64,000 bases of DNA from a virus. Lineage: Duplodnaviria > Caudoviricetes. Below, piece after piece: positions 24,549-53,005 of the stretch. The DNA lies in the IMG/VR virus record IMGVR_UViG_3300035501_000527, positions 1,583 through 65,582 of that record, one strand, 5' to 3'. The position numbers were made by a program, and so were the translations under genes. The stretch's first letter is position 1. The number at the start of each line of letters is the position of its first letter. A model generated the notes under the pieces. It was not told where the DNA came from and did not search any database. It worked only from the letters and a program-made list of their open reading frames with translations.

Positions 24549-24613
24549 CAAAATAAATCAGAAAGGAAAAAGATAGGTAGCTACTAAGGACATGTCACTT
24601 TCTGGTAAATAAT

Positions 24614-27344: not shown

Positions 27345-27555
27345 GTAATGTATAACCTCATATGAGGTATTTGAATAGCCTAAGTCTTAATTGACTACGT
27401 TCATTTAGTTATCACACCATAGAATGATTCCCTAGTTCTATGCAACTGTGTAGGCACTGTAAAAGTCTTGAAAATCACGAGACGGTCAACCTAGTATTGG
27501 TCGAATGACAAGCTATTTGAACATTGGCGAAGGGAAACAACTCTGAAAGGAGGAC
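27345..27555 (+). ncRNA. omegaRNA (HEARO-type) scaffold of IscB; 5' end approximate
   Basis: ATAGCCTAAGTC..GACTACGTT..CCCTAGTTCT..AACATTGGCGAAGGG hallmarks directly upstream of iscB. Confidence 0.8.
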
Positions 27556-28844: not shown

Positions 28845-28979
28845 TATTTGAAAAAATATTACTTTTATTCAGGTAGTTGCAAATGCCTGGATAAAAGCAG
28901 CTTTTACAAAATTAAAAGAAAGGAAATTAACAAGTAACACCGGTTAAAATGATATGCATATCCTTGAGGATCAAGGAAT

Positions 28980-30994: not shown

Positions 30995-31177
30995 TAAAGA
31001 AACATATGTAGAAAGAAAGTATAGAGAGTTCTATGAGAAGAATGGTTATATCCCAAAATATTTTGTCCCATATAACTGCTTGGAAGTATCTGATTATGCC
31101 CTACATTGACAACAGAATCAAATACAAGCTTTGGAAAATCCGGTACTGTACTAATTGTTGTGAATAACGATAAATAA
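30984..31177 (+). pseudogene. Further TRD-like module ORF, frameshifted at CCC 31099-31101
   Basis: Adding one C gives DYAPTLTTESNTSFGKSGTVLI, ending TAA 31175-31177. Confidence 0.55.
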
Positions 31178-31180
31178 AAT

Positions 31181-31258
31181 ACTATATATAGTGGTTGTAA
31201 TGTTACAATACCACTATATATAGAAATATTTTGGGAATAAAACTTCAATTCTATTCGG
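31181..31258 (+). repeat. Composite site A
   Basis: ACTATATATAGT-N20-ACTATATATAGA-N12-ATAAAA-N6-TTCTAT. Confidence 0.8.
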
Positions 31259-31281
31259 AAAAATGTGAAAGGAATTTTTGT

Positions 31282-31560
31282 ATGAAGATATGTAAATGTG
31301 ACTATTGTGGTGAACTATGTGAATCAACACCACAATATGTATTACCATCAGTAGAATTTGTAGATACAGACATCAAAGGTGGAAGTGATAATGTAACCTT
31401 ATCAAAATATACAAGCAGAGTAATTCAGGATGAGCAAGTTGATATATGCCATAAGTGTAGAGAAATTATAGCTGAATTTACAAATTTGATGAAGTTTTGT
31501 GATGTAAATGTTCAAGCTATTAAAGAAGACTTGTTTAAAAAATGCACAAGAGTGGTATGA
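31282..31560 (+). CDS. Hypothetical Zn-finger-like protein
   Basis: GAAAGGA RBS favours ATG 31282; CDYC...CHKC. Confidence 0.7.
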   Translation: MKICKCDYCGELCESTPQYVLPSVEFVDTDIKGGSDNVTLSKYTSRVIQDEQVDICHKCREIIAEFTNLMKFCDVNVQAIKEDLFKKCTRVV

Positions 31561-31721
31561 GTAGCTTGAAGAAAGTAGATATTGTAAGAAAAGAGAAAAA
31601 TGAATTAGAGAAACATAACACGATATGATATGAAATTTTTATAAGGGATTTTTTAGAGAACATATAAGAAAGGATAATTAGTAGCTGGCTTTAAAGGTTG
31701 CAACCGCTTTGGTACTAATTA

Positions 31722-32828
31722 TTGAAAATTGCAATTATTGATGCAGATTTAATAGGAAGAAATAAGCATAGATTTCCTAATCTCGTTTCTATGAAATTAT
31801 CAGGATACTACAAAGAGTTAGGAAGTGATGTTGAATTAAAAACAGATTATGAGAATCTATCAGATTATGACAAAGTATTCATATCTAAAGTATTCACAGA
31901 CACACCAATAGACGAAACCATATTAAATCTTCCAAACGTAGAATATGGTGGTACAGGTTTCTTTTATGATAAAGCACCAAAATTACCAGATGAAGTAGAA
32001 CATCATATGCCGGATTATCACCTATATGATGATTGGGTAAATGATAAGTTAGCGAATGGTAGTAAGAAGAATGATTTTAAATATTACACGGATTATTCGA
32101 TTGGGTTACTGAGTAGAGGATGCTTCCGTCAGTGTCAGTTTTGTGTAAACAGGAATTATAAAAGAGTTTCAGTACATAGTCCATTAGACGAATTTGTTGA
32201 TAAATCAAGAAAGAAAATATGCTTATTAGATGATAATTTCTTAGGTTGCCCTAATTGGAAAGAAATGTTGCTTGAATTGCAAGCCACTGGCAAACCATTT
32301 CAATTTAAGCAAGGGCTTGATGAGCGTATATTAACAGATGAAAAATGTGAGTTGTTATTTAAGAGTAAGTATGATGGTGATTATATCTTCGCATTTGATA
32401 ATATTGCCGATTATGACCTGATTGAAAAGAAGTTACAGTTACTAAGAAAGTATACAGATAAAGTTCCTAAATTTTATGTCTTTTGTGGTTTTGATAGAGA
32501 AGATAAATGGGATAGTGATTTTTGGAAACAAGATTTATGGGATTTATGGAAACGCATCGAATTGCTTATGAAATATCATTGTTTACCATACATAATGAGG
32601 TTTGCAAAGTATGAAGAATCTCCATATAGAGGAACTTATATCAATTTGGCTGCGTGGTGTAACCAACCATCTGCTTTTAAGAAAAAGTCATATAGAGAGT
32701 TTGTGAAATATCAGCAATCAAGACATCCCAAAGAATGTTCAGAAACAAGATATTTGAAACAAATTGAACAGGATATGCCTGATTTAGCAGAAAAATATTT
32801 TGATATGAAGTTTATGGATTTTAATTAA
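31722..32828 (+). CDS. Radical SAM-domain protein
   Basis: RGCFRQCQFC (CX3CX2C), LDDNF motif. Confidence 0.8.
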   Translation: MKIAIIDADLIGRNKHRFPNLVSMKLSGYYKELGSDVELKTDYENLSDYDKVFISKVFTDTPIDETILNLPNVEYGGTGFFYDKAPKLPDEVEHHMPDYHLYDDWVNDKLANGSKKNDFKYYTDYSIGLLSRGCFRQCQFCVNRNYKRVSVHSPLDEFVDKSRKKICLLDDNFLGCPNWKEMLLELQATGKPFQFKQGLDERILTDEKCELLFKSKYDGDYIFAFDNIADYDLIEKKLQLLRKYTDKVPKFYVFCGFDREDKWDSDFWKQDLWDLWKRIELLMKYHCLPYIMRFAKYEESPYRGTYINLAAWCNQPSAFKKKSYREFVKYQQSRHPKECSETRYLKQIEQDMPDLAEKYFDMKFMDFN

Positions 32829-32847
32829 AATAAAAGAGAGGGATATT

Positions 32848-33087
32848 ATGAAATTCATTTTAAACGGTTGCGATATATCTTTCACAGCAGAAGCACCTGA
32901 AGATATTACATTAAAACAGTTATTAGCACAATGCGACAAAATTAAACCGGATTATTGTGCTTGTGGAATCTGTTCTTATGAAAAAGAAGGATTTAGAGAA
33001 GATGTAGAACCGGAAATTATTATTGGATATGACAGTATTAGGAAAGCTAGTGACGATGTAAGTTGTAAAATTATTGGAGAAGAATAA
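32848..33087 (+). CDS. Hypothetical protein
   Basis: ORF track. Confidence 0.7.
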   Translation: MKFILNGCDISFTAEAPEDITLKQLLAQCDKIKPDYCACGICSYEKEGFREDVEPEIIIGYDSIRKASDDVSCKIIGEE

Positions 33088-33124
33088 TTTAGTAAACAAT
33101 AAATTAAGAAAGAGGTTGTAAAAG

Positions 33125-34192
33125 ATGATTAGAAAAGTTGATAAGAAAAACAAATTTATATCCGTATTCAATCCAGATACAGGATTTTATGTGAGAACTG
33201 GAGTTATTAAAGATGGTAAAGATACCGGCGAAGATCCTTTTATGACTTCATTTCCTGAATTACTCGATGTGGGAATTATGCAAACATGTGTATGTAGTCA
33301 TAAATGTAATGTTGATTGCTACCAGAAAGCAATTGATAGAACTGGAAATAATATGTCTGTAAAAGATTTTAAAAGTATCTTGGAACAAGGTAAGGGTAAA
33401 TTATTTCAGGTAGCTCTTGGTGGAGCTGGTGATGTAGATACACATGAAAATTTTGAAGATATTGTAAGACTTTGCAGAGAATATAATATTGTTCCAAACT
33501 TTACAACAAGTGGAATCATGATGACAAAAGAAAAAGCTGAGATATGCAAGAAGTATTGCGGTGCAGTTGCGGTGTCAGAACATTTTGCTGATTATACGGA
33601 TAAGGCTTTAGATTTACTTTTAAATGCGGGTGTTAAGACTAATATTCACTATGTATTAAGTAATAAAAGCATTGATACTGCTATTGATAGATTGAAAAAC
33701 AATAGCTTTAAAAGAGGGATTAATGCAGTTGTTTTTCTTCTGTATAAACCTGTAGGACTTGGTATTGAAGAAAATATGTTGAAAGCGAATGATCCGAGAG
33801 TAAAAGAATTCTTTAGTTTGATTGATAAAGGAAATTATCATCACAAAATTGGATTTGATAGCTGCTCTTGTTCAGGAATAGTTAATTATGCAAGTAATAT
33901 AAATCTTGACACTCTTGATTTCTGTGAAGGAGCAAGATATTCAGCTTACATTGATGCAAATATGAATATGATGCCTTGTTCTTTTGCTAATCAGGATAGT
34001 AACTGGTTTGTTAGTTTAAGAGAACATACAATCAAGGAAGCGTGGGATAGTGATATTTTTGAAAAATTTAGATATTCGTTAAGAAATTCATGTAATGGAT
34101 GCATCAATAGATTAAACTGTGCTGGTGGGTGTCCACTTGTTAATCAGATTACATTGTGTAATAGGAAAGAAAGAGACTTTAAGACAAGATAA
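33125..34192 (+). CDS. Radical SAM protein with SPASM domain
   Basis: CSHKCNVDC cluster, ALGGAG, TTSG, MPCSF, CNGC-X5-CAGGC. Confidence 0.85.
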   Translation: MIRKVDKKNKFISVFNPDTGFYVRTGVIKDGKDTGEDPFMTSFPELLDVGIMQTCVCSHKCNVDCYQKAIDRTGNNMSVKDFKSILEQGKGKLFQVALGGAGDVDTHENFEDIVRLCREYNIVPNFTTSGIMMTKEKAEICKKYCGAVAVSEHFADYTDKALDLLLNAGVKTNIHYVLSNKSIDTAIDRLKNNSFKRGINAVVFLLYKPVGLGIEENMLKANDPRVKEFFSLIDKGNYHHKIGFDSCSCSGIVNYASNINLDTLDFCEGARYSAYIDANMNMMPCSFANQDSNWFVSLREHTIKEAWDSDIFEKFRYSLRNSCNGCINRLNCAGGCPLVNQITLCNRKERDFKTR

Positions 34193-34194
34193 GC

Positions 34195-34596
34195 GTGGTG
34201 AGAATTACGAAGATTAGATTTGATTTTGTGACTAATTCATCAAGTAGTAGTTTTATTATTGAAAAAGACCAATTATCATACGGACAATTGTTAAAATATT
34301 TATTACAGATTGCAAATAAAGAAGCATCTTATTGGGACGATGAATCCGATGATAAAACATATAAATGGAAAGACGTAGAAAAGAATTGTGTTGCTGGTAG
34401 ATATAACATTATTGAAGCAACGCCGGAAAATCCGCATACAGAATATGATGAATTTGGATATGGGGATTCAGAGGAAAAGATTTATACAAATCATTATATT
34501 ATAGACAATGGAAGTTGTGGAAGATACGATTGGGATGTTGTTAGAGAAGTATTAGATAAGCATGGTATTAAATGGAGTTATGGGTATTGCGATTAA
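34195..34596 (+). CDS. TNSSSSS-motif protein 1
   Basis: KIRFDFVTNSSSSSF near N-terminus. Confidence 0.8.
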   Translation: MVRITKIRFDFVTNSSSSSFIIEKDQLSYGQLLKYLLQIANKEASYWDDESDDKTYKWKDVEKNCVAGRYNIIEATPENPHTEYDEFGYGDSEEKIYTNHYIIDNGSCGRYDWDVVREVLDKHGIKWSYGYCD

Positions 34597-34608
34597 GGAG
34601 GATATGTA

Positions 34609-35385
34609 GTGAAGATTCGGAATGATTACGTTACTAATAGTTCAAGTAGCAGCTTTATTATCGGTAAGAAGGATTCTGAATCAGTTACAATTGATTCGGT
34701 TTTCCAGACAATAAAAACATTCTATAAAGAGTACCTAGATGCAAGAAACGCTGTTATCCAATATATTAAAGACAATCCTAAACTTGGTTTGGTTTATCAG
34801 TTATCAGAAGATGGAGCATATTATCATTTTAAATTTATTAATGGTAACAGGTTTGATAATAAGAATACAGCAATAGAGCGATCTATTGAAAGAGATTTTG
34901 GTATTTCTACATGGGATTATTTTTATAAAGATTATGATTGGTTAGAATGCGATACATATAACGATTATGAAAATTATTGGATTGCTAAAATGAATAATGC
35001 TAATAATAAGTGGATTCATGCGCCGTTTACCATAGCAGATTTTCTCGAAGAAAAAGAAATTAGATGGTTACATTGGGGATGTAATGAAAAAGGCATTCAT
35101 AAAGTCAACAGTAAATCTAATACTCTTGGTTGGTATTACAAATATGTAGAAGAAGCATTTGAAAATATGGAATCATGTGATAAGTGTAATTATTCAGATT
35201 GGTGTGACAGAGAAGAATGTGAACAACAAAAGATTTTTCTAAAAGGACAAGATATACCAGAAGATAAAGCATGTTTGTGGTTATTAGGAAGAGTTTGTAT
35301 TCATTCAGAATGCGGATATATTCCTGATTATGTAGTAACGAGATTAGCGAATATATCAGAATATTCGTGCAATCATATGGGATAA
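34609..35385 (+). CDS. TNSSSSS-motif protein 2
   Basis: MKIRNDYVTNSSSSSF. Confidence 0.85.
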   Translation: MKIRNDYVTNSSSSSFIIGKKDSESVTIDSVFQTIKTFYKEYLDARNAVIQYIKDNPKLGLVYQLSEDGAYYHFKFINGNRFDNKNTAIERSIERDFGISTWDYFYKDYDWLECDTYNDYENYWIAKMNNANNKWIHAPFTIADFLEEKEIRWLHWGCNEKGIHKVNSKSNTLGWYYKYVEEAFENMESCDKCNYSDWCDREECEQQKIFLKGQDIPEDKACLWLLGRVCIHSECGYIPDYVVTRLANISEYSCNHMG

Positions 35386-35402
35386 AGAAAGGATGAATTA
35401 TC

Positions 35403-35834
35403 GTGAAAATTAGAAGCGACTACGTGACAAATTCAAGCAGCAGTAGTTTTGTTATTGCTTATAGAAATCTTCCAGAATTTGACGAAGATACACTGACCAA
35501 ATATCCATTTTTGAAAAATTACGGAGAACTAATAGAGAAAGTATTATTTACAGAAGGTGATAATGAAACCGATGAGGGTATCGTATCAAGAACAAAAGAA
35601 GAGTATGATAAGAACTTTATTTCTGTATATGGGTGGAAAGATAATCAATCTGTAGAAGATATTTTAGAAGATGATGATTGGCTCACGAATACATATAACA
35701 AATCTATTGAATATATTGAAAAAGGATTCAATATTTTAGATAAGAGAGTGGATTATAACGATACATATTGCTCAAATATGATTCGTGAATTAGCAAAAGA
35801 TAAAGATAATTTTGTAATATTGGAGGATGAATAA
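35403..35834 (+). CDS. TNSSSSS-motif protein 3
   Basis: MKIRSDYVTNSSSSSF. Confidence 0.85.
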   Translation: MKIRSDYVTNSSSSSFVIAYRNLPEFDEDTLTKYPFLKNYGELIEKVLFTEGDNETDEGIVSRTKEEYDKNFISVYGWKDNQSVEDILEDDDWLTNTYNKSIEYIEKGFNILDKRVDYNDTYCSNMIRELAKDKDNFVILEDE

Positions 35835-36428
35835 TTGAAGATAAGAACTGATTTTGTCACGAATAGTAGTAGCTCTAGTTTTGTATGTGAAATCTGTGGA
35901 CGAACTGAAAGCGGATTTGATGCTAGTTTAAGTGATTTCGATATGATGGAATGTATTAATGGTCATACATTTTGTTGTGATGAAGCGTTAGAAAGACCAT
36001 CAAAAAAAGAACTTATTAAAATGATTTTAGAAAACGAATGGAATAAAGATGCATGGGATTCTAAAACAAAGTATAGAAGAGATTTTTCGGAAGAAGAATT
36101 ACTTGTTATGGAAGAAGATGTTTTGTTTGACAAGTTCTGTTCTGAATGTGGATATTATGAAGTTCCTGAATGCGTTTGCCCTATCTGCCAGTTTATTGAA
36201 TATTCCGAATATGACCTTAGTGCTTATTTGTTAAAAGAGTATGGGGTATCAAGAGATGAAGTTTTCGCAGAAGTGAAAAAGCTTAATAAGAGAAGAAGAA
36301 AGTTGTATGAGAATGAATATATTACATATGTTTGTAAGAAATTTGACTTAAATCCAACTGAAATTGTTGCAGCTTGGAAAGAAAAGTTTGGTACATACAA
36401 TAAATTTAGAGAGTGGTTGGAAAATTAG
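35835..36428 (+). CDS. TNSSSSS-motif protein 4 with Zn-finger-like Cys clusters
   Basis: MKIRTDFVTNSSSSSFVCEIC; CPIC. Confidence 0.85.
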   Translation: MKIRTDFVTNSSSSSFVCEICGRTESGFDASLSDFDMMECINGHTFCCDEALERPSKKELIKMILENEWNKDAWDSKTKYRRDFSEEELLVMEEDVLFDKFCSECGYYEVPECVCPICQFIEYSEYDLSAYLLKEYGVSRDEVFAEVKKLNKRRRKLYENEYITYVCKKFDLNPTEIVAAWKEKFGTYNKFREWLEN

Positions 36429-36439
36429 AAAAGAGACAT

Positions 36440-36516
36440 ACTGTATATAGTGCTTTACAAATGTTAAAACACTATATATAGATTTAAAATCCAGATAAAA
36501 TTTTTGTTTTATTTGG
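36440..36516 (+). repeat. Composite site B
   Basis: ACTGTATATAGT-N19-ACTATATATAGA-N12-ATAAAA-N6-TTTTAT. Confidence 0.8.
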
Positions 36517-36529
36517 AAAGTTACGATGA

Positions 36530-36712
36530 TTAAAAATTTAATTCTATTCCATCAGAAATAGATAATTTATAAAATTTATGTATATTGCCTTGCTTGTCAA
36601 AACCTTTAATAATCAGTCTATCTAGCCAAAAATAACCTTCTTTAAGGTTTGACAAAGTATTACCACTTGTATCTCTCATAAACTGGATACATTCATTAAA
36701 AATTGGATTCAC
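36530..36712 (-). CDS. Inverted 5' end (59 codons) of the PAPS-reductase-like gene
   Basis: GTG start with AGAAAGG leader; joins 36818 onward in frame when the segment is re-inverted. Confidence 0.75.
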   Translation of the reverse strand: MNPIFNECIQFMRDTSGNTLSNLKEGYFWLDRLIIKGFDKQGNIHKFYKLSISDGIELNF

Positions 36713-36817
36713 TCACAACCTGAGTGTAATGTACATTACGATTTAACTAGTATTATCCTTACCTTTCTTTACTTTTTGTCGTTTGCAAACTTTAAAAATT
36801 CTTGAATAGAATTAAAT
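36536..36817. other. Inverted (possibly invertible) DNA segment bounded by 14-bp inverted repeats
   Basis: ATTTAATTCTATTC 36536-36549 and GAATAGAATTAAAT 36804-36817. Confidence 0.8.
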
Positions 36818-36823
36818 ATTGAT

Positions 36824-37942
36824 GTGCCAGAAAAGGGCTATGACAATATTGAAGATGTAGATTTAGCAAGTTGGAACGACTTAGTAAAAATGCAGGAACG
36901 GCATTTGTATCAGATAGAGAAGAAATCAAAAGGGATTATTAAGAAGAAAATGCGAAAGTTTGATGAATATATACCATTAGTTCCTGTAAGTATGGGTAAA
37001 GATTCTATGGTTACTTGCCATTTGGTAAGAGAATGTTATCCAGATACCAAAGCGATTTTTAATAATACAACTTTGGATTGTGCTGATACATATAGAATGG
37101 CAAAACAGTTTCCTAATTGTGAAATGATGACACCAAAGCAAGGTTTCTATCAATACATAAAAGAACAGAACGTAGTGTTTAATAGAATATCTCGTGGTTG
37201 TTGCCGGATATTTAAGGTTGGTGAAATGGTCAATCAGTTGGATCATAATACTCCATATTTGATGTTTATGGGTATGAGAAATGAAGAAAGTAATACTAGG
37301 AGTGGTTATGGTGATGAATGGATTAACGAAACTGAATGGGGAGATACTTGTTGGCAAGGAATTTTACCAATTAGAAAATGGTCTGAATTAGATATTTGGC
37401 TTTATACATTTTGGAAGAATATAGAAATAAATACTAAGTACAGAAAAGGCTATTCAAGAGTTGGTTGTGCTATTGCTTGCCCTTACTATACCAAATCAAC
37501 ATGGATTCTTGATAAATATTGGTATCCAACAATGCGAAAGAGATGGGAAGATATTTTAAGAGAAGATTTTATTAGTAATAAGAAGTGGATTGTCATGAAC
37601 TGTACAATTAATGAATATATCAACTTAGCTTGGAATGGCGGTGTATTCAGGCAAGAGCCAACAGAAGAAGTCATAAAAGAATATGCTGAATATAACGGTT
37701 TAGATAAAACAGTGGCAAAGCAATATTTCAATAAGTATTGTGCTAATGGCTGCAAAACAAATTCTGGTAAACAGAAGAAAATAAAAGAGAAGAATGTATT
37801 AGCAATGAATATGAAATATCATGGCAGAAATATTAACAAGTTTTATTGCAAAAAGTGCCTGATGAAGATGTTGGATATGGATGAAGATAAGTGGAATGCT
37901 AATATTGAGACATTCAAACAACAGGGTTGTGCTTTGTTCTAA
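36824..37942 (+). CDS. PAPS-reductase-family protein; 5'-truncated in this orientation
   Basis: SMGKDS PP-loop, GMRNEES..R, SRVGCAIACP; C-terminal CKKC; no RBS before GTG 36824. Confidence 0.85.
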   Translation: MPEKGYDNIEDVDLASWNDLVKMQERHLYQIEKKSKGIIKKKMRKFDEYIPLVPVSMGKDSMVTCHLVRECYPDTKAIFNNTTLDCADTYRMAKQFPNCEMMTPKQGFYQYIKEQNVVFNRISRGCCRIFKVGEMVNQLDHNTPYLMFMGMRNEESNTRSGYGDEWINETEWGDTCWQGILPIRKWSELDIWLYTFWKNIEINTKYRKGYSRVGCAIACPYYTKSTWILDKYWYPTMRKRWEDILREDFISNKKWIVMNCTINEYINLAWNGGVFRQEPTEEVIKEYAEYNGLDKTVAKQYFNKYCANGCKTNSGKQKKIKEKNVLAMNMKYHGRNINKFYCKKCLMKMLDMDEDKWNANIETFKQQGCALF

Positions 37943-37950
37943 AAATGAAT

Positions 37951-38027
37951 ACTATATATAGTAGTTTATAAATGCTCAAACACAATATGTTGATTAGATT
38001 TCCCGATAAAACCTTTCTTCTATTTGG
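37951..38027 (+). repeat. Composite site C
   Basis: ACTATATATAGT-N19-ACAATATGTTGA-N12-ATAAAA-N6-TTCTAT. Confidence 0.8.
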
Positions 38028-38048
38028 AAAATTAACAGGAGGAAACTA

Positions 38049-38402
38049 ATGACAAAAAGAGAGAATGTATTAACAAGAGTACCATTCCAAACAAGATTTT
38101 CTGGGATGTACGTTTTGGATAAATCAAAAGATTGGGTACTTAATACCATAAAAATGTGTGGTATAGAAGATAATTGTATAGATGGAAGGTCTATAAATTT
38201 TGATATATCTTCAATAAACAACAGAATTATTATTCGTCCACTAGAAAAATATGATGATTATTTTTTGGTTGCAGAGTATCTTTGTTTTACTTCTGTTGTT
38301 GAAATTAAATCAGATGATTATATAGATGTTATTAAACAAAGTAATGGCGATTATCTATTTACTATGAAAAAAGGTGACTTAAATGATAACCAACAAGCGT
38401 GA
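38049..38402 (+). CDS. Hypothetical protein
   Basis: ORF track; AGGAGG RBS. Confidence 0.75.
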   Translation: MTKRENVLTRVPFQTRFSGMYVLDKSKDWVLNTIKMCGIEDNCIDGRSINFDISSINNRIIIRPLEKYDDYFLVAEYLCFTSVVEIKSDDYIDVIKQSNGDYLFTMKKGDLNDNQQA

Positions 38403-38568
38403 ACAGAAAATCTGTGACAAATACTCTGCCTACGATGAAACAGGTCATGTTTAGTGCTTTGAATGTCCGTTGAGTAAAGGTAATTGGAGACAGCATGACT
38501 TTCGGTGTAAGGCGAATACTCATTACGATAGGCATACAGGAGAATGGGAATACGATGAAAAGAGGTGA
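38383..38568 (+). pseudogene. Small Cys-containing gene with in-frame TAG
   Basis: MITNKREQKICDKYSAYDETGHV*CFECPLSKG...; TAG at 38452-38454; AAGGTGA RBS. Confidence 0.55.
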
Positions 38569-39160
38569 TTCTTTGAGAAGTGATTTTCGGTTAGGAGATA
38601 AAGTTATTTTCGATAAAAGTAATGGCAATGATAATTTTAAAAGTAAAGGTTTGTTGACTAATTTTGGAATCATTATAAATAAAAATGATATTGACACATA
38701 TCATATTATGTATTTTGACGATTGTAAAATTTCAATAGCATATTATATTTCTGATGATTATATCAAACCTATTGAGGATAATACATATGAACAATCAAGG
38801 ATTGAAGTATATTATGAAAAACTTATTGAGGATGAAAAGAAGAAATTAAAAACAGTATCACAAGAAGAAAAGGATAAGCAGAAAGTAGAAAGATATGAGA
38901 ATATTAAACAACGAATTATCCGCAATTGTGAATGGTGTGTAACTAAGGATTTAGATGATGAAGATTTTGTAAATCGTGTAAAAGAAATTGCTAATCTTAA
39001 AAAGCAACTATTCTCACCTGAACGGCTTCCGTGTATGAATGAGATTCATAGATATAATGGAACTATTAAATATAATATTAGAGAATTGGAGTATGAAAGA
39101 GATAAGCTGCTGAAACAAATTTCTGATGAAGAAATCGAATTAAGATTGGGAAAGTTTTGA
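38555..39160 (+). CDS. Hypothetical protein
   Basis: In frame with track ORF 38495; start uncertain. Confidence 0.7.
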   Translation: MKRGDSLRSDFRLGDKVIFDKSNGNDNFKSKGLLTNFGIIINKNDIDTYHIMYFDDCKISIAYYISDDYIKPIEDNTYEQSRIEVYYEKLIEDEKKKLKTVSQEEKDKQKVERYENIKQRIIRNCEWCVTKDLDDEDFVNRVKEIANLKKQLFSPERLPCMNEIHRYNGTIKYNIRELEYERDKLLKQISDEEIELRLGKF

Positions 39161-39240
39161 TTTAAAATTTACAAGAAAGGATACAAGGCGTTGCAACCGT
39201 AAGAGATATCTGTCCTTTTTGGTAAAAGAAAATAAAATAT

Positions 39241-39936
39241 ATGGGTTCAAAGAGCAGGATAGTTAATAACATTCTGCCAATAATTCAGAAAAGATTAGAA
39301 GATTATAATATTAAAACGTACATCGAACCATTTTGCGGCGGCTGTAACGTAATTGATAAAGTGGTTTGTGATAAGAAAATTGCATCAGATAATAACAAAT
39401 ACCTAATAGAGTTGTTCAAAAATATAGACAAAATAGATTTACTTCCAGAGATTGCTTCTTATGAGCATTATTGTGAATGTAGAGATGCTTATAACAATTC
39501 TGATTTCTCAAATTTTCCCAAATGGTACATTGGTATGATTGGATTTCTCGCTAGTTATTCCGGCAGGTTCTATGACGGAGGGTTTAATGGAACTGGTTAT
39601 TTAGAAGGAAGAACAAAAAGAAATTATTATGATGAAGCAAAAAGAAATTTAGCTGCACAAGTTAAAGATTTAGATGGCATTGATTTTGTTTATGGCGATT
39701 ATTTTGACCTATATAAAGATAATGAGGATTGCTTATTCTACTGTGATATTCCGTATAAAGATACAAAGCAGTATAATACTTCAAGAAATTTCGATTATGA
39801 AAAATTTTGGGATTGGGCTGAAAGAATGTCAGAGAAGAATATAGTATTAGTTAGCGAATATCAAGCACCTAAACAATGGGAATGTATATGGGAGAAACCA
39901 TTATTAAAGACAATGAATCATGGGGAAAAATGTTAA
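39241..39936 (+). CDS. Dam-like (D12 class) N6-adenine methyltransferase; C-terminal frameshift likely
   Basis: (IKY)MGSK, EPFCGG, YCDIPY; alternative-frame tail NSNEKLFEIRE ends 39970. Confidence 0.85.
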   Translation: MGSKSRIVNNILPIIQKRLEDYNIKTYIEPFCGGCNVIDKVVCDKKIASDNNKYLIELFKNIDKIDLLPEIASYEHYCECRDAYNNSDFSNFPKWYIGMIGFLASYSGRFYDGGFNGTGYLEGRTKRNYYDEAKRNLAAQVKDLDGIDFVYGDYFDLYKDNEDCLFYCDIPYKDTKQYNTSRNFDYEKFWDWAERMSEKNIVLVSEYQAPKQWECIWEKPLLKTMNHGEKC

Positions 39937-40002
39937 TTCAAATGAGAAATTGTTTGAGATTAGAGAATAAAAGGAAGATAAATAGAAGAAAGAAGTGATA
40001 AA

Positions 40003-40308
40003 TTGGTTAAAAAAGAATTTGAGATAAAAACTCATACAGTTACAGATAAGGTTTGTACAAAAGAAACGCTTATTTGTGATATTTGCGACAAAGAAATTCC
40101 ATATCGTTGTGGTTACTGGCATTTAGTTACGCAGCATCATGATTGGGGAAATGATAGTATAGAGAGCATTGAATCTTTTGATGTATGCTCAAAAGATTGT
40201 ATGAATGAAAAGTACAACGAATACATGAATGATAGTGGAGAGAGCGATTACAACACTATGGAATTTGAAATAAGCAGAGAATGTAACTCTTATGGGATAA
40301 AGCAATAA
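40003..40308 (+). CDS. Hypothetical protein
   Basis: ORF track; CDIC...CSKDC. Confidence 0.7.
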   Translation: MVKKEFEIKTHTVTDKVCTKETLICDICDKEIPYRCGYWHLVTQHHDWGNDSIESIESFDVCSKDCMNEKYNEYMNDSGESDYNTMEFEISRECNSYGIKQ

Positions 40309-40372
40309 TTAAAGTAACAAGATATAGAATCTGCGTTTTATTGGGGTAAATTTTAGAGAGGAGAATGGTTAA

Positions 40373-40579
40373 ATGGACATGAATTATAACATTACAATAA
40401 AACTTTCACCGGAAGAATTGAAAAATATTATTGCCGAATATATTTCAAAAGAGACAGGAAGAAGAATAAAAAGTGATAATATAAAATTCTTAGCTACCTA
40501 TGATTGTGTTGGATATGGAATGAATGAATATTATGAAACCGTATTTAAGGGTTGTGAAATAGATTGCAAGAGGGAATAA
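40373..40579 (+). CDS. Hypothetical protein
   Basis: ORF track. Confidence 0.7.
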   Translation: MDMNYNITIKLSPEELKNIIAEYISKETGRRIKSDNIKFLATYDCVGYGMNEYYETVFKGCEIDCKRE

Positions 40580-40848
40580 TATTGGACGAAGATTATTATC
40601 TTGATATATGGCTAGATGCATGGTCAGAACAATTTAAGGATAAAAATAAAGCATTAGAAATATTACGAAAACTTTCTGACAATCTTAATATGCCAATTCG
40701 AGAAATTGTTGAGCATATTGATATTATTGCTGGATATCCAGAATTTTCATATGAGTTATTAGAGAAAATAGCAGATATATATAATTCAAAAATTGATTTT
40801 CCAAAAGAGAGTATTTCTTCTATCAAAAAAACAAATCAAATATTGTAA
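40564..40848 (+). CDS. Hypothetical protein
   Basis: ORF track; start uncertain. Confidence 0.65.
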   Translation: MQEGIILDEDYYLDIWLDAWSEQFKDKNKALEILRKLSDNLNMPIREIVEHIDIIAGYPEFSYELLEKIADIYNSKIDFPKESISSIKKTNQIL

Positions 40849-41141
40849 AAATCCAATGGAGAAGAAAAGATTAGAGGAAAAATTAAATGGTCTGTATAAA
40901 AAAAGAAAAATAAAGATAAGAGGTGAATAAAAATTATACTTATATTCGCACATATTGCATTGGCTATTATGAGTATGTCGATGGCAATTAATCAGGGTAG
41001 GAAAAGATATAAGATTTGGTGGACTGCTATTTCAATTATCTGGGCATTGTGTGTAATTATTGAACTATTAAAACTTGTAGGGATTATGTAAGAGTTACTT
41101 TCATTACCTCTACAAATCCAAACTTCTATTGGGAAAATTTT

Positions 41142-41648
41142 TTGAAGAAGGTGATAAAAATAATAAATATTTCACAATGGGCTAGAAAATTAGATGAGAA
41201 ATATTGTGTATATAGATATATTGATATGTCTGATGGTGTAATTAAATATGTTGGAATTGTTTGTAATGGAACTGTCGCAAATAGACATAAAGCACATTCA
41301 AAAGAAGATTGGTATATTGATGGTCAATATTTAGTGGAATATATAGTTGTAAATAATCGCAGCGAAGCTGAAGCGATTGAATCTCATTTAATATCATTAT
41401 ATGGGACAGATCAATATTACAACAAAGCAAAGACAGGGTGGGGAATAAACACATTGCTCCCAACTGAATTTGATTGGAAACCAGTAATTACAACAATTGA
41501 TGATTTGGTAAAAGATATTCAGAGTTCATGTAACTATTATGATGATAAGTATAATGGGAAGATACCAACTGATAGAATTAGAGATTACATAGAAGAAATC
41601 AATTATATAAGACAAGTACGTGAATATTTGGAGAATATAGCAGTGTAG
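41142..41648 (+). CDS. GIY-YIG nuclease-like protein
   Basis: CVYRY...KYVG...RHKAH...AEAIESHLI. Confidence 0.7.
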   Translation: MKKVIKIINISQWARKLDEKYCVYRYIDMSDGVIKYVGIVCNGTVANRHKAHSKEDWYIDGQYLVEYIVVNNRSEAEAIESHLISLYGTDQYYNKAKTGWGINTLLPTEFDWKPVITTIDDLVKDIQSSCNYYDDKYNGKIPTDRIRDYIEEINYIRQVREYLENIAV

Positions 41649-41685
41649 TAATTATTAGAGTTTAGAAGAAAGAGAGAAATAATTT

Positions 41686-42114
41686 ATGAGTGATGTAACT
41701 AAAATATGGCTTCCATATTTTGAAACATTTAAAGAAAAATACACAATTACAAAAGGAAAGAAAATTGATTTAACAAGCATTTCTGTTCATGGTGTGCCAT
41801 ACTTCTCTTTATAAGACAAAGATTTAGAAGAAATAAATTTTGAGATTAAGTGTATTGATGGTGAATGGATAGTGTATCCACTAAAAAAATATGATAATTA
41901 TGCGATTAAATATACTAGATATGTTGAAAAGATTTTTTCTGAAAATGAACCGAAGGTTTCAGCGAAAACGATCAAATTAACAGATGAGGAAGTTACTTTT
42001 ATAGATACAGAAGCATTAGTAAAATGTTTAAGAACTGGTGGTTCAACATATGCAGAATATGATAAGAATGGAAAAATTTTAATGAATATACTTTTCTCAT
42101 ATAATGAAGAATAG
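41686..42114 (+). pseudogene. Hypothetical gene split by in-frame TAA
   Basis: ATG 41686 is in frame with track ORF 41872; a single TAA at 41812-41814. Confidence 0.55.
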
Positions 42115-42161
42115 ATAAAAATTTTCCAAATAAATCTCGGCTTCTATTTCCATCGAGAGAG

Positions 42162-42416
42162 GTGATTAAGAGCTTGAGTGATTTCAACGAATCTGAAAAG
42201 AATGAATTTATAAATCTTATCAATTCTGTAAAGCCATGTTTCTGTTTTTCTGATAAGGAAACACATGAAAAATTCAATGAATGGATAAGAAATCAAAAAG
42301 ATATAGATGATTTATTTAAGAAAATAGAATGGTATGAATATGAAGGATTAGAAGAAAATTATATTTATGTTATACCTAGTAATGGCAAATATTTAAAATG
42401 TATGCTGGAGAAATAG
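42162..42416 (+). CDS. Hypothetical protein
   Basis: ORF track. Confidence 0.7.
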   Translation: MIKSLSDFNESEKNEFINLINSVKPCFCFSDKETHEKFNEWIRNQKDIDDLFKKIEWYEYEGLEENYIYVIPSNGKYLKCMLEK

Positions 42417-42420
42417 AAGA

Positions 42421-42666
42421 ATGAAATTATATTTAGCAAGTAAAGAATTAGATTTAAAAGAATTACAAGAAAAGATTATTTATTTCCGCATTCTTAAAAA
42501 TAAATATCCATATTTGTTTATGAGTGGTAGTACGTTGAGCGCAATCGAAGATCAGTCTGATTTAAAGTCATTTAACGAACCTGTTAATTCTGTAATTTGC
42601 GAGTATCGTGGTTGTAAAGTTTATCTTGATAATAGCTTGTGGTTTGGAGAAGTTGAACTTAGATAA
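42421..42666 (+). CDS. Hypothetical protein (paralog of 60638-60892)
   Basis: PYLFM...Y.G..VY....L.FGEVE.R shared. Confidence 0.75.
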   Translation: MKLYLASKELDLKELQEKIIYFRILKNKYPYLFMSGSTLSAIEDQSDLKSFNEPVNSVICEYRGCKVYLDNSLWFGEVELR

Positions 42667-42672
42667 ATAAAG

Positions 42673-42987
42673 GTGATAAGGATGATTAGAAAAGTAAATA
42701 AATTTGCATTTCTTGATAGTTGTAACGATCCTGCTTCATTAGCCTATAACATTTTAGACGCTGAAACTGGAATGTTATTAGAGGAAAATCCATCTGATTT
42801 TACTTATTATATTTATGATTTACCTTTTAGTGTTGACAGTAAATCAGATGGCAGATATGAACGGGTGGTAGCATTAGAGTTTGTAGAAGTATGCGAAACA
42901 GACCAAGAAGATAATTTAAGTGATTTTGGTTTTACTCTGATAAATTCTCATACTGCTCATGGATATAAAATGTGGCAAAAGTTTTAA
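42673..42987 (+). CDS. Hypothetical protein
   Basis: ORF track. Confidence 0.7.
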   Translation: MIRMIRKVNKFAFLDSCNDPASLAYNILDAETGMLLEENPSDFTYYIYDLPFSVDSKSDGRYERVVALEFVEVCETDQEDNLSDFGFTLINSHTAHGYKMWQKF

Positions 42988-43008
42988 AGGAAAGGATAGA
43001 GAAAGATA

Positions 43009-43647
43009 GTGGCAGAAATTAAATTGATTGAAAAAGACACAGACATCTCAGCATTAACAATGCATAAAATGGATTGGGATGTTGTAGTAAACAACAAACC
43101 ATATCAAGTAGTTTTAATAGAAGATTATATTCATATAATTGGTGGTCGGCATGGAGTGAATAATCTATGGATGTATCCAAGATACGAAGAACCAACATAC
43201 GAAAATCTTGTTGAATATGATGGCGAGGGTTGTGGTGTGTGTTGGGGAATTAAGTATGAACCACATAATTACATAAGAAGCAAATATGATGAGTCAGAAT
43301 GTTTTACAAGCGGTGGAGCAACTATTACAAGAAATGGTAAAGACTTCTATTTTTGTAGACATGGTATTGATGAAGCAAGAGTAAAAATCAGAAAATGTGA
43401 AGATCATCCATTAAATCTGAATGCAATTGAATATGATGAAAAAATGATTGGTAGAAAAGTTTGGTGGAGAAGCGAACCTGCTGTTATTACGTTTTATTGC
43501 GATGAACAGGCCTGTGTAATTCTTGAACCTGATGGAATTAAAAGGTTTACCACACCAGCAGAATTTGCAGATGAACGTGATGAATATTATGAGGACGGTG
43601 AAGTAAAAGTAGATATTTTCAGTGAACATATTTGGTGGCATAGATAA
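43009..43647 (+). CDS. Hypothetical protein
   Basis: ORF track. Confidence 0.8.
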   Translation: MAEIKLIEKDTDISALTMHKMDWDVVVNNKPYQVVLIEDYIHIIGGRHGVNNLWMYPRYEEPTYENLVEYDGEGCGVCWGIKYEPHNYIRSKYDESECFTSGGATITRNGKDFYFCRHGIDEARVKIRKCEDHPLNLNAIEYDEKMIGRKVWWRSEPAVITFYCDEQACVILEPDGIKRFTTPAEFADERDEYYEDGEVKVDIFSEHIWWHR

Positions 43648-43669
43648 TTATTAAAAGGAGAAGAATTAA

Positions 43670-43972
43670 TTGAAAATATTAAATAAATATCAAATGCAAA
43701 ATTTAATAGAAGAGTTCCCTGATAGTGGAGGAATTGTATTTGCGGAGTATGAACCTTGTGTTCTTAAATCAGAATTAATGGTAACTGATGGAGATTTCGG
43801 CGCAACAACAGTTATTCCTAATAATGGCGAAGTGTTTGATTTCGACTGGAATATTGAAGAATATAAAGATAAGGATTTATTTGCAGTATTTGACAATAAT
43901 GATGTACTACAAATGATTCAAACATTAACTAGAGGATTAAAAATCAAACTTAGTAGTCAATATGATTATTAA
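43670..43972 (+). CDS. Hypothetical protein
   Basis: ORF track; AAGGAG RBS. Confidence 0.75.
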   Translation: MKILNKYQMQNLIEEFPDSGGIVFAEYEPCVLKSELMVTDGDFGATTVIPNNGEVFDFDWNIEEYKDKDLFAVFDNNDVLQMIQTLTRGLKIKLSSQYDY

Positions 43973-43987
43973 CATAAGAAAAAGAAG

Positions 43988-44896
43988 GTGATAATAATAG
44001 ATTTAATTGAAGCATTACAGAAGCAGATGGAATTTTGTCGTGAAAAAGAAAGATATAAATGTGGAGTATATGTTAAATCCCAAGAGCATATGAAGATGGT
44101 TGGGAAAGTTATCAGCAACTTGATTCCAAGAGTAAATAAAGAAGTAGATTTAAGACTTCGCAATAATTATACTGAAGCAATTTGGACAAATGGTAGTGTT
44201 TTAAAAATAATTCGTGCAAATGATAGTGCAAGAGCACAACGGTTCAACGGAATCATAATTGACAATGATATTGAAAGAGAAATTATAAATACGATTATTT
44301 ACCCAGTACTAAGACCAATTATAACAGAAATATCAAAAGGATATGAGAAGAATGATAATCCGAATGAAAGAGTTTATTACGTTGGAATTAGTGAAGACGA
44401 TGTAAGAAAATCTGAACAGTATAAACAAATTTTTTATGTTTCATCGGCTACAAGATCAAGTTCAGTTTTTTGTGATGATTTGATAAAGCCATTTACAACC
44501 ACAGAATTATTTAAGAAGGAGTATGAATGTATGTTTTACGAAAATGATTATGATAGACCAGTAATAGAAAAAGAATTAAATGGTGATAAGGTCATGCTAT
44601 ATGAAGCATGGGGAATTCCAAAGGATTTAATTACATACTCAACAGAATTTATCAATAAAACAAAGAAAACATATTTAAATGTTTCTGGTAAGTATGAAAT
44701 TCAAGATCTTGGATTTAAAAATGATTTGAATATTCATATCCTTATTGATACAGATATCTATGATGGATACGAAGTACATGTTAATGATGGATTGGTAATG
44801 GTAGTATTGCATGAAATAAAGAATGAAGCACCCGCATTAAAGGACTATGGTGTATCTGAATCCGAAGATAATGAAGCTCATTTCCCAATAGATTAA
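43988..44896 (+). CDS. Hypothetical protein
   Basis: ORF track. Confidence 0.75.
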   Translation: MIIIDLIEALQKQMEFCREKERYKCGVYVKSQEHMKMVGKVISNLIPRVNKEVDLRLRNNYTEAIWTNGSVLKIIRANDSARAQRFNGIIIDNDIEREIINTIIYPVLRPIITEISKGYEKNDNPNERVYYVGISEDDVRKSEQYKQIFYVSSATRSSSVFCDDLIKPFTTTELFKKEYECMFYENDYDRPVIEKELNGDKVMLYEAWGIPKDLITYSTEFINKTKKTYLNVSGKYEIQDLGFKNDLNIHILIDTDIYDGYEVHVNDGLVMVVLHEIKNEAPALKDYGVSESEDNEAHFPID

Positions 44897-44948
44897 TAAA
44901 ATAAATTCTCATTCTATTTGGTAAAAAAAATAGGAAGGAGGGTGAAAT

Positions 44949-45614
44949 GTGCCTTATGTTTATAGATACACAGATTTAAATGATGAAATTATAAAATATG
45001 TTGGTAATGTATGGTCAAATAATCGAACATTACAGAAACGAATAAGAGAACATAAAAATGATGATTGGTACAAAGATAAAAATTGGAAAATAGAATATAT
45101 TCAAGTAAACACAAGAACGGATGCAGAATATCTTGAATCTCATTTTATCGAAAAGTATAAAACATATAACTATTATAATCAGGCTAAAGCACATTGGGGC
45201 ATATCTGATTTTATCAAAGATGATTTCGAATGGAAATTGTACACAGAGGATTTGTCTGAGTTTGAATGTTTAAAAAATTACAATAAAAAGTTATGTAACG
45301 AAAATAACAAACTGTCTTTAGATATAAAAAAGTTGGAATATGAATTAAAGGATGCAAAAAATCAAATAAATTATTTAGAGCAAAATAAGAATACTGATAT
45401 TACACAAGATGAAATAGATGATGCTAATAATGAATTATCTTTATTAAAAATTGAAAAGGATTCACATAAAGTTGGTAGACCATCATCAATAACACCGCAT
45501 GATATAGATTTAATGTTTACTTTAAGAAAAGATGGAGCTTCAATGAGAGAAATTGCAAAAATATTAAAAATTTCCGTTGGCTCGGTACATAGATTCCTTA
45601 ATAATTTAGCATAA
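44949..45614 (+). CDS. GIY-YIG nuclease-like protein with coiled coil and C-terminal HTH
   Basis: YVYRY..KYVG..RIREH..AEYLESHFI; GRPS...SMREIAKILKISVGSVHRFL. Confidence 0.75.
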   Translation: MPYVYRYTDLNDEIIKYVGNVWSNNRTLQKRIREHKNDDWYKDKNWKIEYIQVNTRTDAEYLESHFIEKYKTYNYYNQAKAHWGISDFIKDDFEWKLYTEDLSEFECLKNYNKKLCNENNKLSLDIKKLEYELKDAKNQINYLEQNKNTDITQDEIDDANNELSLLKIEKDSHKVGRPSSITPHDIDLMFTLRKDGASMREIAKILKISVGSVHRFLNNLA

Positions 45615-45711
45615 TTCTGATAGAGATATTTCTAAATGTAGCAATTATTTGAGCTATATTCTGTTCAGGTGGAAAACAGCCCGCCTTTTCCCATTCTCAG
45701 AAATTCACACC

Positions 45712-45789
45712 ACTATATATAGTGGCTTATATAGATAATACATACAATATATTGATTAAAAATGGGGATAGAATAGCTGTTTTATCGGG
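45712..45789 (+). repeat. Composite site D
   Basis: ACTATATATAGT-N20-ACAATATATTGA-N12-ATAGAA-N6-TTTTAT. Confidence 0.8.
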
Positions 45790-45923
45790 ATAAATTTTAC
45801 ATAGAGTTATTTTATGTTCCAGTCGAAAGACTGTTTATCATATTTTGATTTTTGTTGGTTTAGTTATTTATTATTTTATATTTTACATTAAAATTTTTTA
45901 TTTACAAGGAGGACATTTATTTA

Positions 45924-46805
45924 ATGGCAGAAACAAATTTGAGACAGGCAAACGCAAAGGCATTTGTGCATGGTATTGTCAGCGAAAAGAATTTAAAGGT
46001 TGTAACAGAGGAAGGAAAAAATAAGATTACTGGTCATTTGACTGTAAAGACTTCTGATGTGAACTTTGTTAAGTTCAATGTCAATGTTAATGAAAAAACA
46101 AATGCTGGTACGGATAATAAGACCTATGCTGGTATTCAGACAGTAATGAATGAATACAAGTCTATTGCTGAAGTGGGCGAAGATGAAGCTACAAGAGTTA
46201 AGGTAAGTGGAGATATTAGTCCTTTTACTGGTAAGAATGGTGAAAAGATTGTTTCTTACAAGAGTAATTTCTTTAACAGATTAAAGGCTGATGAGGAATT
46301 AGAAGCAAAAGCTGAGTTCTCAATCGAGTTATTTATTTCTGGTATCAACCCTGAACTTGATACAGAAGGTGTAGAAACAGGTAGAACAATCGTTAGTGGT
46401 TGGATGCCAACATATAACGGTATTGAACCGGTTGATTTAGTTGCTGAAGGAGAAGTTGCACAGGCTATTGATTCTGGTTTCGAACCAGGACAGACAGTAG
46501 AGTTTTATGGAGATATTATTAACAATAGAATTGAAACTGTTACTGAAATTCCTGTAAAGATTGGCAAGCCAAGAAAGAAGGTTACTGTTGAAATTAAGAA
46601 TGACCTTATTATTACAGGAGCTTCTGAGGCATATGAAGAGGGTATTACACCAGAACTTCCTTACGCAGCAGATACTATTCAGGCTGCTATTCAAGAGAGG
46701 GCAAACAAGCTTGAAGAAGCAAAAGCAAAGGCTCAGAGTGGTGCGAAGACCACTAGCAATGCAAAGCCTAGTGGTGCGGCGCATGGCAGAAGTTTAGGCT
46801 TCTAA
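45924..46805 (+). CDS. Putative single-stranded DNA-binding protein
   Basis: First gene of replication module, beta-rich composition, low-complexity C-terminal tail; positional inference. Confidence 0.55.
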   Translation: MAETNLRQANAKAFVHGIVSEKNLKVVTEEGKNKITGHLTVKTSDVNFVKFNVNVNEKTNAGTDNKTYAGIQTVMNEYKSIAEVGEDEATRVKVSGDISPFTGKNGEKIVSYKSNFFNRLKADEELEAKAEFSIELFISGINPELDTEGVETGRTIVSGWMPTYNGIEPVDLVAEGEVAQAIDSGFEPGQTVEFYGDIINNRIETVTEIPVKIGKPRKKVTVEIKNDLIITGASEAYEEGITPELPYAADTIQAAIQERANKLEEAKAKAQSGAKTTSNAKPSGAAHGRSLGF

Positions 46806-46897
46806 GATAATTGATATATAAGGTACAAATGAAACAGTATGAAAATAAGTACCGTTTTTAACATTAGAAAATACATAAATTGGAGGAATTTATTTTA

Positions 46898-47884: not shown

Positions 47885-47895
47885 GAGGTTTGTGA

Positions 47896-50111: not shown

Positions 50112-50124
50112 GTGAGGTGAAGAT

Positions 50125-52994: not shown

Positions 52995-53005
52995 GGAGGA
53001 AACGA

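Follow-up and report, generated by a model that had tools for sequence, protein, structure and literature searches.

The 64,000-nucleotide (nt) stretch of DNA analysed here, called the window, comprises positions 1,583 to 65,582 of IMG/VR record IMGVR_UViG_3300035501_000527, a virus of the Caudoviricetes (Duplodnaviria), and covers nearly all of a 65.6-kb parent fragment whose CheckV completeness is 37%. Its G+C content is ~30%, and the + strand carries nearly all long open reading frames (ORFs). In its middle part, four composite sites, A to D, share one order of elements: a 12-mer palindrome, 19-20 bp, a second 12-mer, exactly 12 bp, and an 18-bp core, ATARAA-N6-TTYTAT. The first-pass annotation had placed these sites at 31181, 36440, 37951, and 45712, and both their geometry and their setting are confirmed; site A follows a C5-methyltransferase locus, sites B and C flank a PAPS-reductase-like gene, and site D heads the replication module. 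The palindromes are very probably the central parts of tandem boxes for NrdR, the bacterial repressor of ribonucleotide reductase (RNR) genes, and the composite sites as a whole are read as NrdR-gated phage promoters, with a probability of roughly 0.78 judged from the sequence. The elements of the four sites are as follows.

31148-31163, + strand: candidate extra box ("box 0"), 15 bp 5' of box 1 of site A; weak, with 5/6 key positions.
31181-31192 and 31213-31224, + strand: 12-mers of site A, 20 bp apart, then 12 bp to the core; as NrdR boxes, box 1 at 31179-31194, a 16-bp linker containing a -35-like TTGTAA, and box 2 at 31211-31226, with 12/12 key positions.
31237-31254, + strand: core A, ATAAAA-CTTCAA-TTCTAT; the next gene has its ATG at 31283.
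36440-36451 (ACTGTATATAGT, one mismatch) and 36471-36482, + strand: 12-mers of site B, 19 bp apart, then 12 bp to the core; as NrdR boxes, box 1 at 36438-36453 (A6 changed to G), a 15-bp linker containing a -35-like TTTACA, and box 2 at 36469-36484, with 11/12 key positions.
36495-36512, + strand: core B, ATAAAA-TTTTTG-TTTTAT.
37951-37962 and 37982-37993, + strand: 12-mers of site C, 19 bp apart, then 12 bp to the core; as NrdR boxes, box 1 at 37949-37964, a 15-bp linker, and box 2 at 37980-37995 (ACACAATATGTTGATT), with 12/12 key positions.
38006-38023, + strand: core C, ATAAAA-CCTTTC-TTCTAT, with an AGGAGG ribosome-binding site (RBS) 14 nt 3' and a gene at 38049-38402.
45712-45723 and 45744-45755, + strand: 12-mers of site D, 20 bp apart, then 12 bp to the core; as NrdR boxes, box 1 at 45710-45725, a 16-bp linker, and box 2 at 45742-45757, with 12/12 key positions.
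45768-45785, + strand: core D, ATAGAA-TAGCTG-TTTTAT.

NrdR is a near-universal bacterial repressor of RNR genes; its form loaded with dATP and ATP is a tetramer that binds two boxes and blocks RNA polymerase, and with ATP alone the protein releases the DNA (PMC9110341, PMC12051234, PMC13584703). The NrdR site consists of two partially palindromic 16-bp boxes joined by a linker of 15-16 bp, three helical turns from centre to centre, and the boxes frequently overlap the RNA polymerase site (PMC13584703, PMC12051234, PMC9110341). Within each box, C4, A6, A8, T9, T11, and G13 are highly conserved, and NrdRs cross-bind to boxes of the consensus type (PMC13584703). The eight boxes at sites A to D keep 47 of these 48 key positions, the sole miss being the A6 to G change in box 1 of site B, and the linkers between the 16-mers measure 16, 15, 15, and 16 bp, respectively. 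The 12-mers correspond to positions 3-14 of the 16-bp boxes; therefore, the gap of 19-20 bp is the NrdR linker of 15-16 bp. All six key positions are retained also in the degenerate-looking second boxes of sites C and D (ACAATATGTTGA, ACAATATATTGA). In the window, ACTATATATAGT with at most one mismatch occurs seven times against 0.48 expected, and the core pattern ATARAA-N6-TTYTAT nine times against 0.44 expected, counts that were reached in 0/100 shuffles in both cases. A perfect copy of ACTATATATAGT lies at 49430-49441 inside the DnaB-like gene, without a partner box, and is probably non-functional, as NrdR requires two boxes. Some promoters of relatives (L173, L174, and L168) possess an array of three consecutive NrdR boxes, comparable with the box 0/1/2 arrays of some bacterial nrd promoters.

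A scan of prokaryotes for the exact layout of 12-mer, N18-21, and 12-mer, with one genome per species, gives at least 120 loci, including Clostridia, Bacilli, Fusobacteria, cyanobacteria, Saccharibacteria, Proteobacteria, and spirochaetes. An ORF of 700-1200 amino acids (aa) adjoins the box pair at most of the bacterial loci listed, and an RNR, namely NrdD with an ATP-cone, NrdA/E, or NrdJ, adjoins it in 10/10 bacterial loci tested. The same layout is found in at least 117 viral stretches of IMG/VR, mostly gut-phage contigs of 90-215 kb, with 148 distinct variants among them; the gap between the 12-mers is 19 bp in 90 variants, 20 bp in 50, 18 bp in four, and 21 bp in four, equivalent to linkers of 14-17 bp. 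The identification as NrdR boxes is based on the near-perfect 12-mers and their spacing, and not on a loose scan for the six key positions, whose background is about one chance pair per window and 1-2 pairs per genome. No NrdR box pair exists in the 60-134 kb region of SPbeta that was scanned, and a literature search found no publication linking NrdR boxes to phage genes.

As to the binding protein, four relatives that are 91-100% complete encode no small ATP-cone protein of NrdR size, and their only ATP-cone belongs to NrdD. Hence, the NrdR of the host is the expected binder, and it likely occupies the phage boxes. The first-pass annotation had assigned the palindromes to accessory proteins of a recombination reaction, for which no support was obtained, since the boxes agree with tandem NrdR boxes in every sequence feature compared and the same pattern precedes bacterial RNR genes. 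Its main alternative, a promoter or operator of a phage-specific factor, holds for the boxes as regulatory sites and fails in the phage-specific factor, as the binder is most likely host NrdR.

All four sites of the window, and the sites of relatives, are oriented with transcription. In many relatives, the RBS is situated directly 3' of the core or even of box 2; hence, the transcript would start upstream of that RBS. Among the 148 variants, linker positions 3-4 are TT (69% and 85%), and in the 12-bp gap position 3 is T (69%), position 4 is A (85%), and position 8 is T (66%). Such conservation is consistent with two promoter arrangements, either a TTGnnA -35 element at linker positions 3-8, located 17 bp before a TATAGT -10 element in box 2, or a TAWWWT -10 element at positions 3-8 of the gap. 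In both arrangements, RNA polymerase would cover box 2, as in nrd promoters, and the exact gap of 12 bp would reflect the geometry from promoter to transcription start, placing that start within the left arm of the core or immediately 5' of it. A promoter on the 3' side of the core, with a TAAAAT-like hexamer 3-5 nt after it, was rejected because the RBS is too close in sites A to C and in most relatives. A scan for sigma-70 and terminator consensus sequences is uninformative in such A+T-rich DNA (88 matches against 99.6 in shuffles), and an Rfam scan detects no family at the composite sites.

Under NrdR control, the host repressor would keep four phage operons off at high dATP, namely a small-gene/radical-SAM cluster, the PAPS-reductase-like gene, a cluster with a 117-aa protein and a Dam-like methyltransferase, and the replication module. 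Phage DNA synthesis would then drain the dATP pool, and NrdR would release the four operons. In Streptococcus pneumoniae, lytic phage infection strongly derepresses the host NrdR regulon (PMC6755750), a response from which a phage with NrdR boxes would gain a useful switch. The region behind site D comprises two parts.

45786-45923, + strand: leader of the replication module, 138 nt.
45924-59213, + strand: SPbeta-like replication module behind site D, in synteny with SPbeta yorE-yorL.

The module encodes a YorF-sized protein, a YorG/Sak4-like AAA_24 protein, a DnaB-like helicase, a PD-(D/E)XK nuclease, a YorL-like PolIII alpha, and a RecD2-like helicase. The YorF-sized, AAA_24/Sak4-like, DnaB-like, and YorL-like proteins follow the order of SPbeta yorF-yorL, and the PolIII alpha of 1312 aa shares 40% identity with SPbeta YorL; judged by sequence and gene order, the phage is SPbeta-like. 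The 138-nt leader contains a terminator-like hairpin with a T-run at 45820-45833, conserved in L007, which could be an attenuator. Relatives of the phage are contigs of 90-215 kb, many of them from human-gut metagenomes and some of them proviruses within isolate genomes, and at least two of them encode a YonO-like RNA polymerase. A megablast of the region 30-46.5 kb against GenBank phages gives no match. Products of the first genes behind boxed promoters in relatives include an NAD-dependent DNA ligase, a Sak4-like ATPase, dUTPase/dCTP-deaminase-like proteins, an isochorismatase, an MT-A70 methyltransferase, Lar, and the Thoeris inhibitor Tad4.

Several points weigh against control by host NrdR. 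The first genes after sites A to D are not RNR genes, the usual targets of NrdR, and in relatives NrdD is located several kb downstream of a boxed promoter. Simultaneously, the placement of the -10 element is ambiguous, and box 2 of the window sites ends in ...GA, weakening TATAGT in this role. The presence of NrdR in the host is assumed from its near-universality, and the hint of a host comes only via a metagenome-assembled genome (MAG) of Lachnoclostridium. The core is present at 2/120 of the listed bacterial NrdR loci, one of which is this MAG, with the exact 12-bp gap, and the composite site there possibly belongs to a prophage of this phage group. Furthermore, the window genome, being only 37% complete, could itself encode an NrdR-like protein. 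Such a phage-encoded regulator with NrdR-like specificity would suit the use of the boxes on many non-RNR genes, but no Zn-ribbon/ATP-cone protein except NrdD exists in the four relatives of 91-100% completeness, and the boxes are indistinguishable from bacterial ones; binding by a phage protein instead of host NrdR is therefore regarded as very improbable.

Meanwhile, the core is a separate, phage-lineage-specific element, located where the promoter cassette, or the upstream stop codon, meets the RBS of the next gene. Further copies exist in the window without boxes.

1390-1407, + strand: core-only site.
22591-22608, + strand: core-only site with an RBS immediately 3'.
27109-27126, + strand: core-only site, with the stop codon of the upstream ORF within the left arm.
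40324-40341, + strand: core-only site.
61139-61156, + strand: core-only site, with the stop codon of the upstream ORF within the left arm.
21463, 23451, 41124, 44912 (44899-44921), and 59686: degenerate cores, which keep the right half TTYTATYKGG and have a weak left arm.

Cores at gene junctions frequently have the upstream stop codon within their left arm, and their right arm adjoins the RBS. Of the extended right half, TTYTATYKGG, the window has 13 copies (2.2 expected), 10 of them on the + (coding) strand. The distance between the arms is strict; in the window, nine copies have a 6-bp spacer, one has a 5-bp spacer, and none has a 7-bp spacer, and neither 5-bp nor 7-bp spacers are found in the cores of the relatives G001 and G003. 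The half-sites differ between lineages, with nine ATARAA and no AWGAAA in the window genome (G000), eight AWGAAA and no ATARAA in G001, and 11 and two, respectively, in G003. In G005, G006, and G008, the AWGAAA-type cores (AWGAAA-N6-TTTCWT) number 8-9 against 0-2 in a reversed-pattern control; the counts of cores per genome include a few false positives. In the relative L007, the orthologue of site D keeps the full geometry, and both arms have changed symmetrically to ATGAAA-N6-TTTCAT. At the variable arm positions, however, changes occur independently (perfect and mismatched pairs number 6/5 in G003 and 4/4 in G001), and the spacer is unconserved within the window. The independent arms and the unconserved spacer speak for a DNA site with two protein-bound arms rather than for a hairpin. 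Some late-region sequences that match the core exactly, at 27978 in G003 and at 111561 in G005 (AAGAAACCGCTCTTTCTT), resemble parts of terminator hairpins and are probably coincidental.

A core-like sequence also bounds an invertible segment next to site B, formed by the 5' leader and ~59 codons of the PAPS-reductase-like gene.

36530-36549, + strand: degenerate second core, TTAAAA-ATTTAA-TTCTAT(TC), whose spacer and right arm form the left inverted repeat.
36804-36820, - strand: right inverted repeat, the reverse complement of ATTTAA-TTCTAT-TC.

The two repeats (36533-36549 and 36804-36820) are 17 nt long and 94% complementary. The inversion noted in the first-pass annotation is real, because both orientations of the segment exist in relatives; among the 15 relatives with the gene (loci L345-L359), nine are in the "on" orientation, and six, together with the window, are flipped ("off"). 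The inverted repeats differ between three lineages, being AAAATTTAATTCTATTC in the window, CCAATCTTTCA in L345/L355, and GTAACGTTTC in L356. In each lineage, the repeat consists of the spacer and right arm of a core-like site; this arm agrees with the core type of that lineage, and the outer arms differ. The left site of L356 is a near-full core, ATGAAA-GTAACG-TTTCCA, with 5/6 matches in the right arm.

Homology between genomes often changes at the same elements. The window and G001 (L007) are homologous at the DNA level from 45772 onwards, a position inside core D; the homologous block of 13.5 kb has composite sites at both ends in G001. One promoter cassette precedes at least 10 different genes, with divergence from the fifth base of the right arm (junction at TTTC); elsewhere, the same genes sit behind core-like sites, and their homology starts at the left arm. 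Gene starts coincide with a homology breakpoint in 27/30 cases with a core against 335/671 without one (Fisher p = 7e-6), a count in which the sites are not phylogenetically independent. Breakpoint mapping thus agrees in part with the association with cores that had been proposed, while the junctions fall variably in the left arm, the right arm, or the RBS. No convincing direct repeats with identical spacer and arm were found within a locus or genome; under loose conditions, the single pair obtained lies in G003, with its members 75 kb apart and on opposite strands.

These features can be explained in several ways. The leading reading of the core, tentative and short of an even chance, is that of a target for a phage tyrosine-recombinase-type protein. 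Its evidence is circumstantial, in that the inversion repeats are core-like and homology blocks start and end at cores, and an operator role is possible too. Joined to the promoter reading, it gives a scheme in which the boxes are NrdR operators and the core is an asymmetric tyrosine-recombinase site whose right arm and spacer are strong and whose left arm is weak; the recombinase would invert the 5' end of the PAPS-reductase-like gene and, over evolutionary time, exchange gene cassettes at gene junctions. This combined scheme, plausible and equally tentative, accounts for the inverted repeats in three lineages, each formed by spacer and right arm following the lineage core type, for the differing outer arms of the two inversion sites, for the excess of the right half on the coding strand, and for the position of cores between stop codon and RBS; the enrichment of breakpoints at cores and the lack of serine recombinases or serine invertases in the relatives examined are also in keeping with it. 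Against it, there is only one inversion, no excised or inserted stretch with a core at each end was found, and the left inverted repeat may merely overlap a standard pre-gene element. Breakpoints also cluster at RBSs, and half of the core-less gene starts coincide with breakpoints as well. Furthermore, no cognate protein could be assigned to the core among the candidates examined, and no recombinase of the relatives correlates with the core type. The first-pass annotation went further and took the composite as a full attP/attI-like site, with accessory proteins on the palindromes, crossover in the core, the core-only copies as attB/attC-like partners, and a recombinase that moves cassettes. 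The 6-bp arms and strict 6-bp spacer do have the shape of a tyrosine-recombinase site, the core-like repeats of a real inversion, the homology start in core D, the G001 block between composite sites, and the shared promoter cassette with its junction in the right arm would agree with such a site, and related genomes encode 2-4 tyrosine recombinases each. Nevertheless, it is the least probable of the explanations; in addition to the NrdR identity of the supposed accessory boxes, four direct copies that run with transcription and precede an RBS lie within 15 kb, against one site per element, no recombinase gene is adjacent (none exists between 27 and 59 kb in the window), the junction points vary, and no direct-repeat partners share spacer and arm.

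A possible, although rather doubtful, explanation is that the core is an operator for a phage repressor, comparable with SPBRE/MrpR or with stoperators, and acts as a roadblock at gene junctions and immediately 3' of the promoter. SPbeta, which the phage resembles, contains ~10 SPBRE inverted-repeat sites at early promoters, including the yorE promoter, bound by a repressor with a recombinase fold (PMC10516654), and independently varying arms, an unconserved spacer, and a fixed distance from the promoter would all suit an operator. However, a search by sequence found no homologue of MrpR/YopR or YopP, SPBRE has another sequence, a right half with so strong a direction would be unusual in the site of a symmetric dimer, and an operator alone leaves the core-like repeats of the inversion unexplained. 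Action of the core in RNA, as a hairpin in the 5' untranslated region serving as stabiliser or processing site, or as a translational operator, is improbable. The core is always 0-30 nt 5' of an RBS on the coding strand, and the flanks of cores B and C extend the pairing to 8/9 and 11/11 pairs; yet the stems have six A/U-rich pairs with an unconserved loop, covariation is absent, A-C mismatches occur in 2/9 window cores and W/W mismatches in about half of the cores of relatives, and a -10 element in the gap would start the transcript inside the left arm. The hairpin was rejected on the grounds that the arms vary independently and mismatches are about as frequent as expected by chance. The tyrosine-recombinase-type target thus stays the leading reading of the core, beside the NrdR-gated promoter reading of the composite sites.

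Several other features were recorded around these sites. A tyrosine recombinase (L075), with R, HxxR, H, and Y intact, is encoded immediately 5' of the window, where the record begins (G000:C1:2-904), and is cut by the contig end. It was rejected as the partner of the core, as its orthologues are confined to G003 (52% identity), G007, and G008 and do not track the core type; an identical site, ATAGAA-ATGATA-TTTTAT, is located 1.4-1.9 kb upstream of the orthologue in G003 and G008. The product of 44949-45614, an HTH_7 protein of 221 aa with a GIY-YIG-like N-terminus and a resolvase-type HTH at the C-terminus, was also rejected as a binder, because it is homing-endonuclease-like and looks like a free-standing homing endonuclease. 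The degenerate core at 44899-44921 precedes this gene, and a full core (139204) precedes its homologue in G003. In the early region, a MazF/PemK-like toxin gene is situated at 8669-9061 and a tRNA gene at 9672-9742. A HEARO RNA (Rfam RF02033, 89.6 bits) at 27325-27541 lies directly 5' of a gene for a 427-aa RRXRR + HNH protein (27561-28844), and the two together resemble an OMEGA nuclease of the IscB type and the guide RNA belonging to it, within a phage; the core-only site at 27109 is ~200 bp 5' of the RNA. Leaders of ~60 nt with an AGAAAGG motif precede genes of modification enzymes (24555-24612, 28907-28966, 31666-31727, and also ~39170-39240). These leaders are 90-100% identical to stretches of G001 and G003 with unrelated flanking genes and are a second mobile or conserved 5' element.

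NrdR has been described as an RNR-specific repressor, with topA in Pseudomonas as the exception and the only experimentally shown non-RNR target found in the literature (PMC4409342). Here, a large and common group of human-gut phages appears to place textbook NrdR operators on early operons for replication, DNA modification, nucleotide metabolism, and anti-defence. If host NrdR binds, these phages would read the dATP/ATP state of the cell directly and turn on DNA-related genes once replication depletes the pool, which would couple infection to host metabolism in a simple way. A motif that resembles a recombination site can thus be a borrowed host operator. The core, in turn, connects promoter cassettes, gene junctions, mosaic breakpoints, and a conserved intragenic inversion, and provides a handle on the reshuffling of accessory genes. 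It is rather unlikely that all of this forms a cassette system of SPbeta-like gut phages, in which the core is the substrate of a tyrosine recombinase that flips the 5' end of the modification gene as an on/off switch and plugs accessory and anti-defence genes behind NrdR-gated promoters; in that event, a host sensor of deoxynucleoside triphosphates would time the expression of a shuffled gene set.

Compared with bacterial RNR promoters, the phage sites have the same two 16-bp boxes, the linker of 15-16 bp, and the six key positions, and are likewise placed directly 5' of a gene. They differ in that they lie in a phage genome, at four promoters within 15 kb, and the boxes are fused at a fixed distance of 12 bp to a phage-specific core. 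The next genes differ as well, being DNA modification genes and the replication module here, and genes for DNA ligase, dUTPase, methyltransferases, Tad4, and Lar in relatives. In SPbeta, SPBRE resembles the core as a short inverted-repeat element at ~10 early promoters or gene starts, one of which heads the replication module, and its binder MrpR (YopR) has a tyrosine-recombinase fold (PMC10516654). The SPBRE sequence (AAATACAAAWAATATGTATA) differs from the core, and SPBRE overlaps the -10 element, whereas the core lies after it. Integron attI/attC sites are similar in that a promoter-proximal site is followed by gene-junction sites in one orientation, and the same genes occur behind different sites. 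Unlike integrons, the phages have no adjacent integrase, no attC-type hairpins (the arms are without covariation), and several promoter sites per genome, and neither excision nor insertion of a single cassette was seen. In the Rci shufflon, the sfx sites are asymmetric tyrosine-recombinase sites with conservation limited to the spacer and one arm, and inverted copies flank an invertible segment. In comparison, the window has one invertible segment, the arms are much shorter (6 bp), and most copies are direct and lie at gene junctions. The stoperators of cluster A mycobacteriophages, short directional sites that recur many times in short intergenic regions and point along transcription, are asymmetric repressor sites of 13-14 bp without a two-arm structure and are not known to form inversion repeats. 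The core, in contrast, has two arms, and core-like sequence forms the repeats of an inversion.

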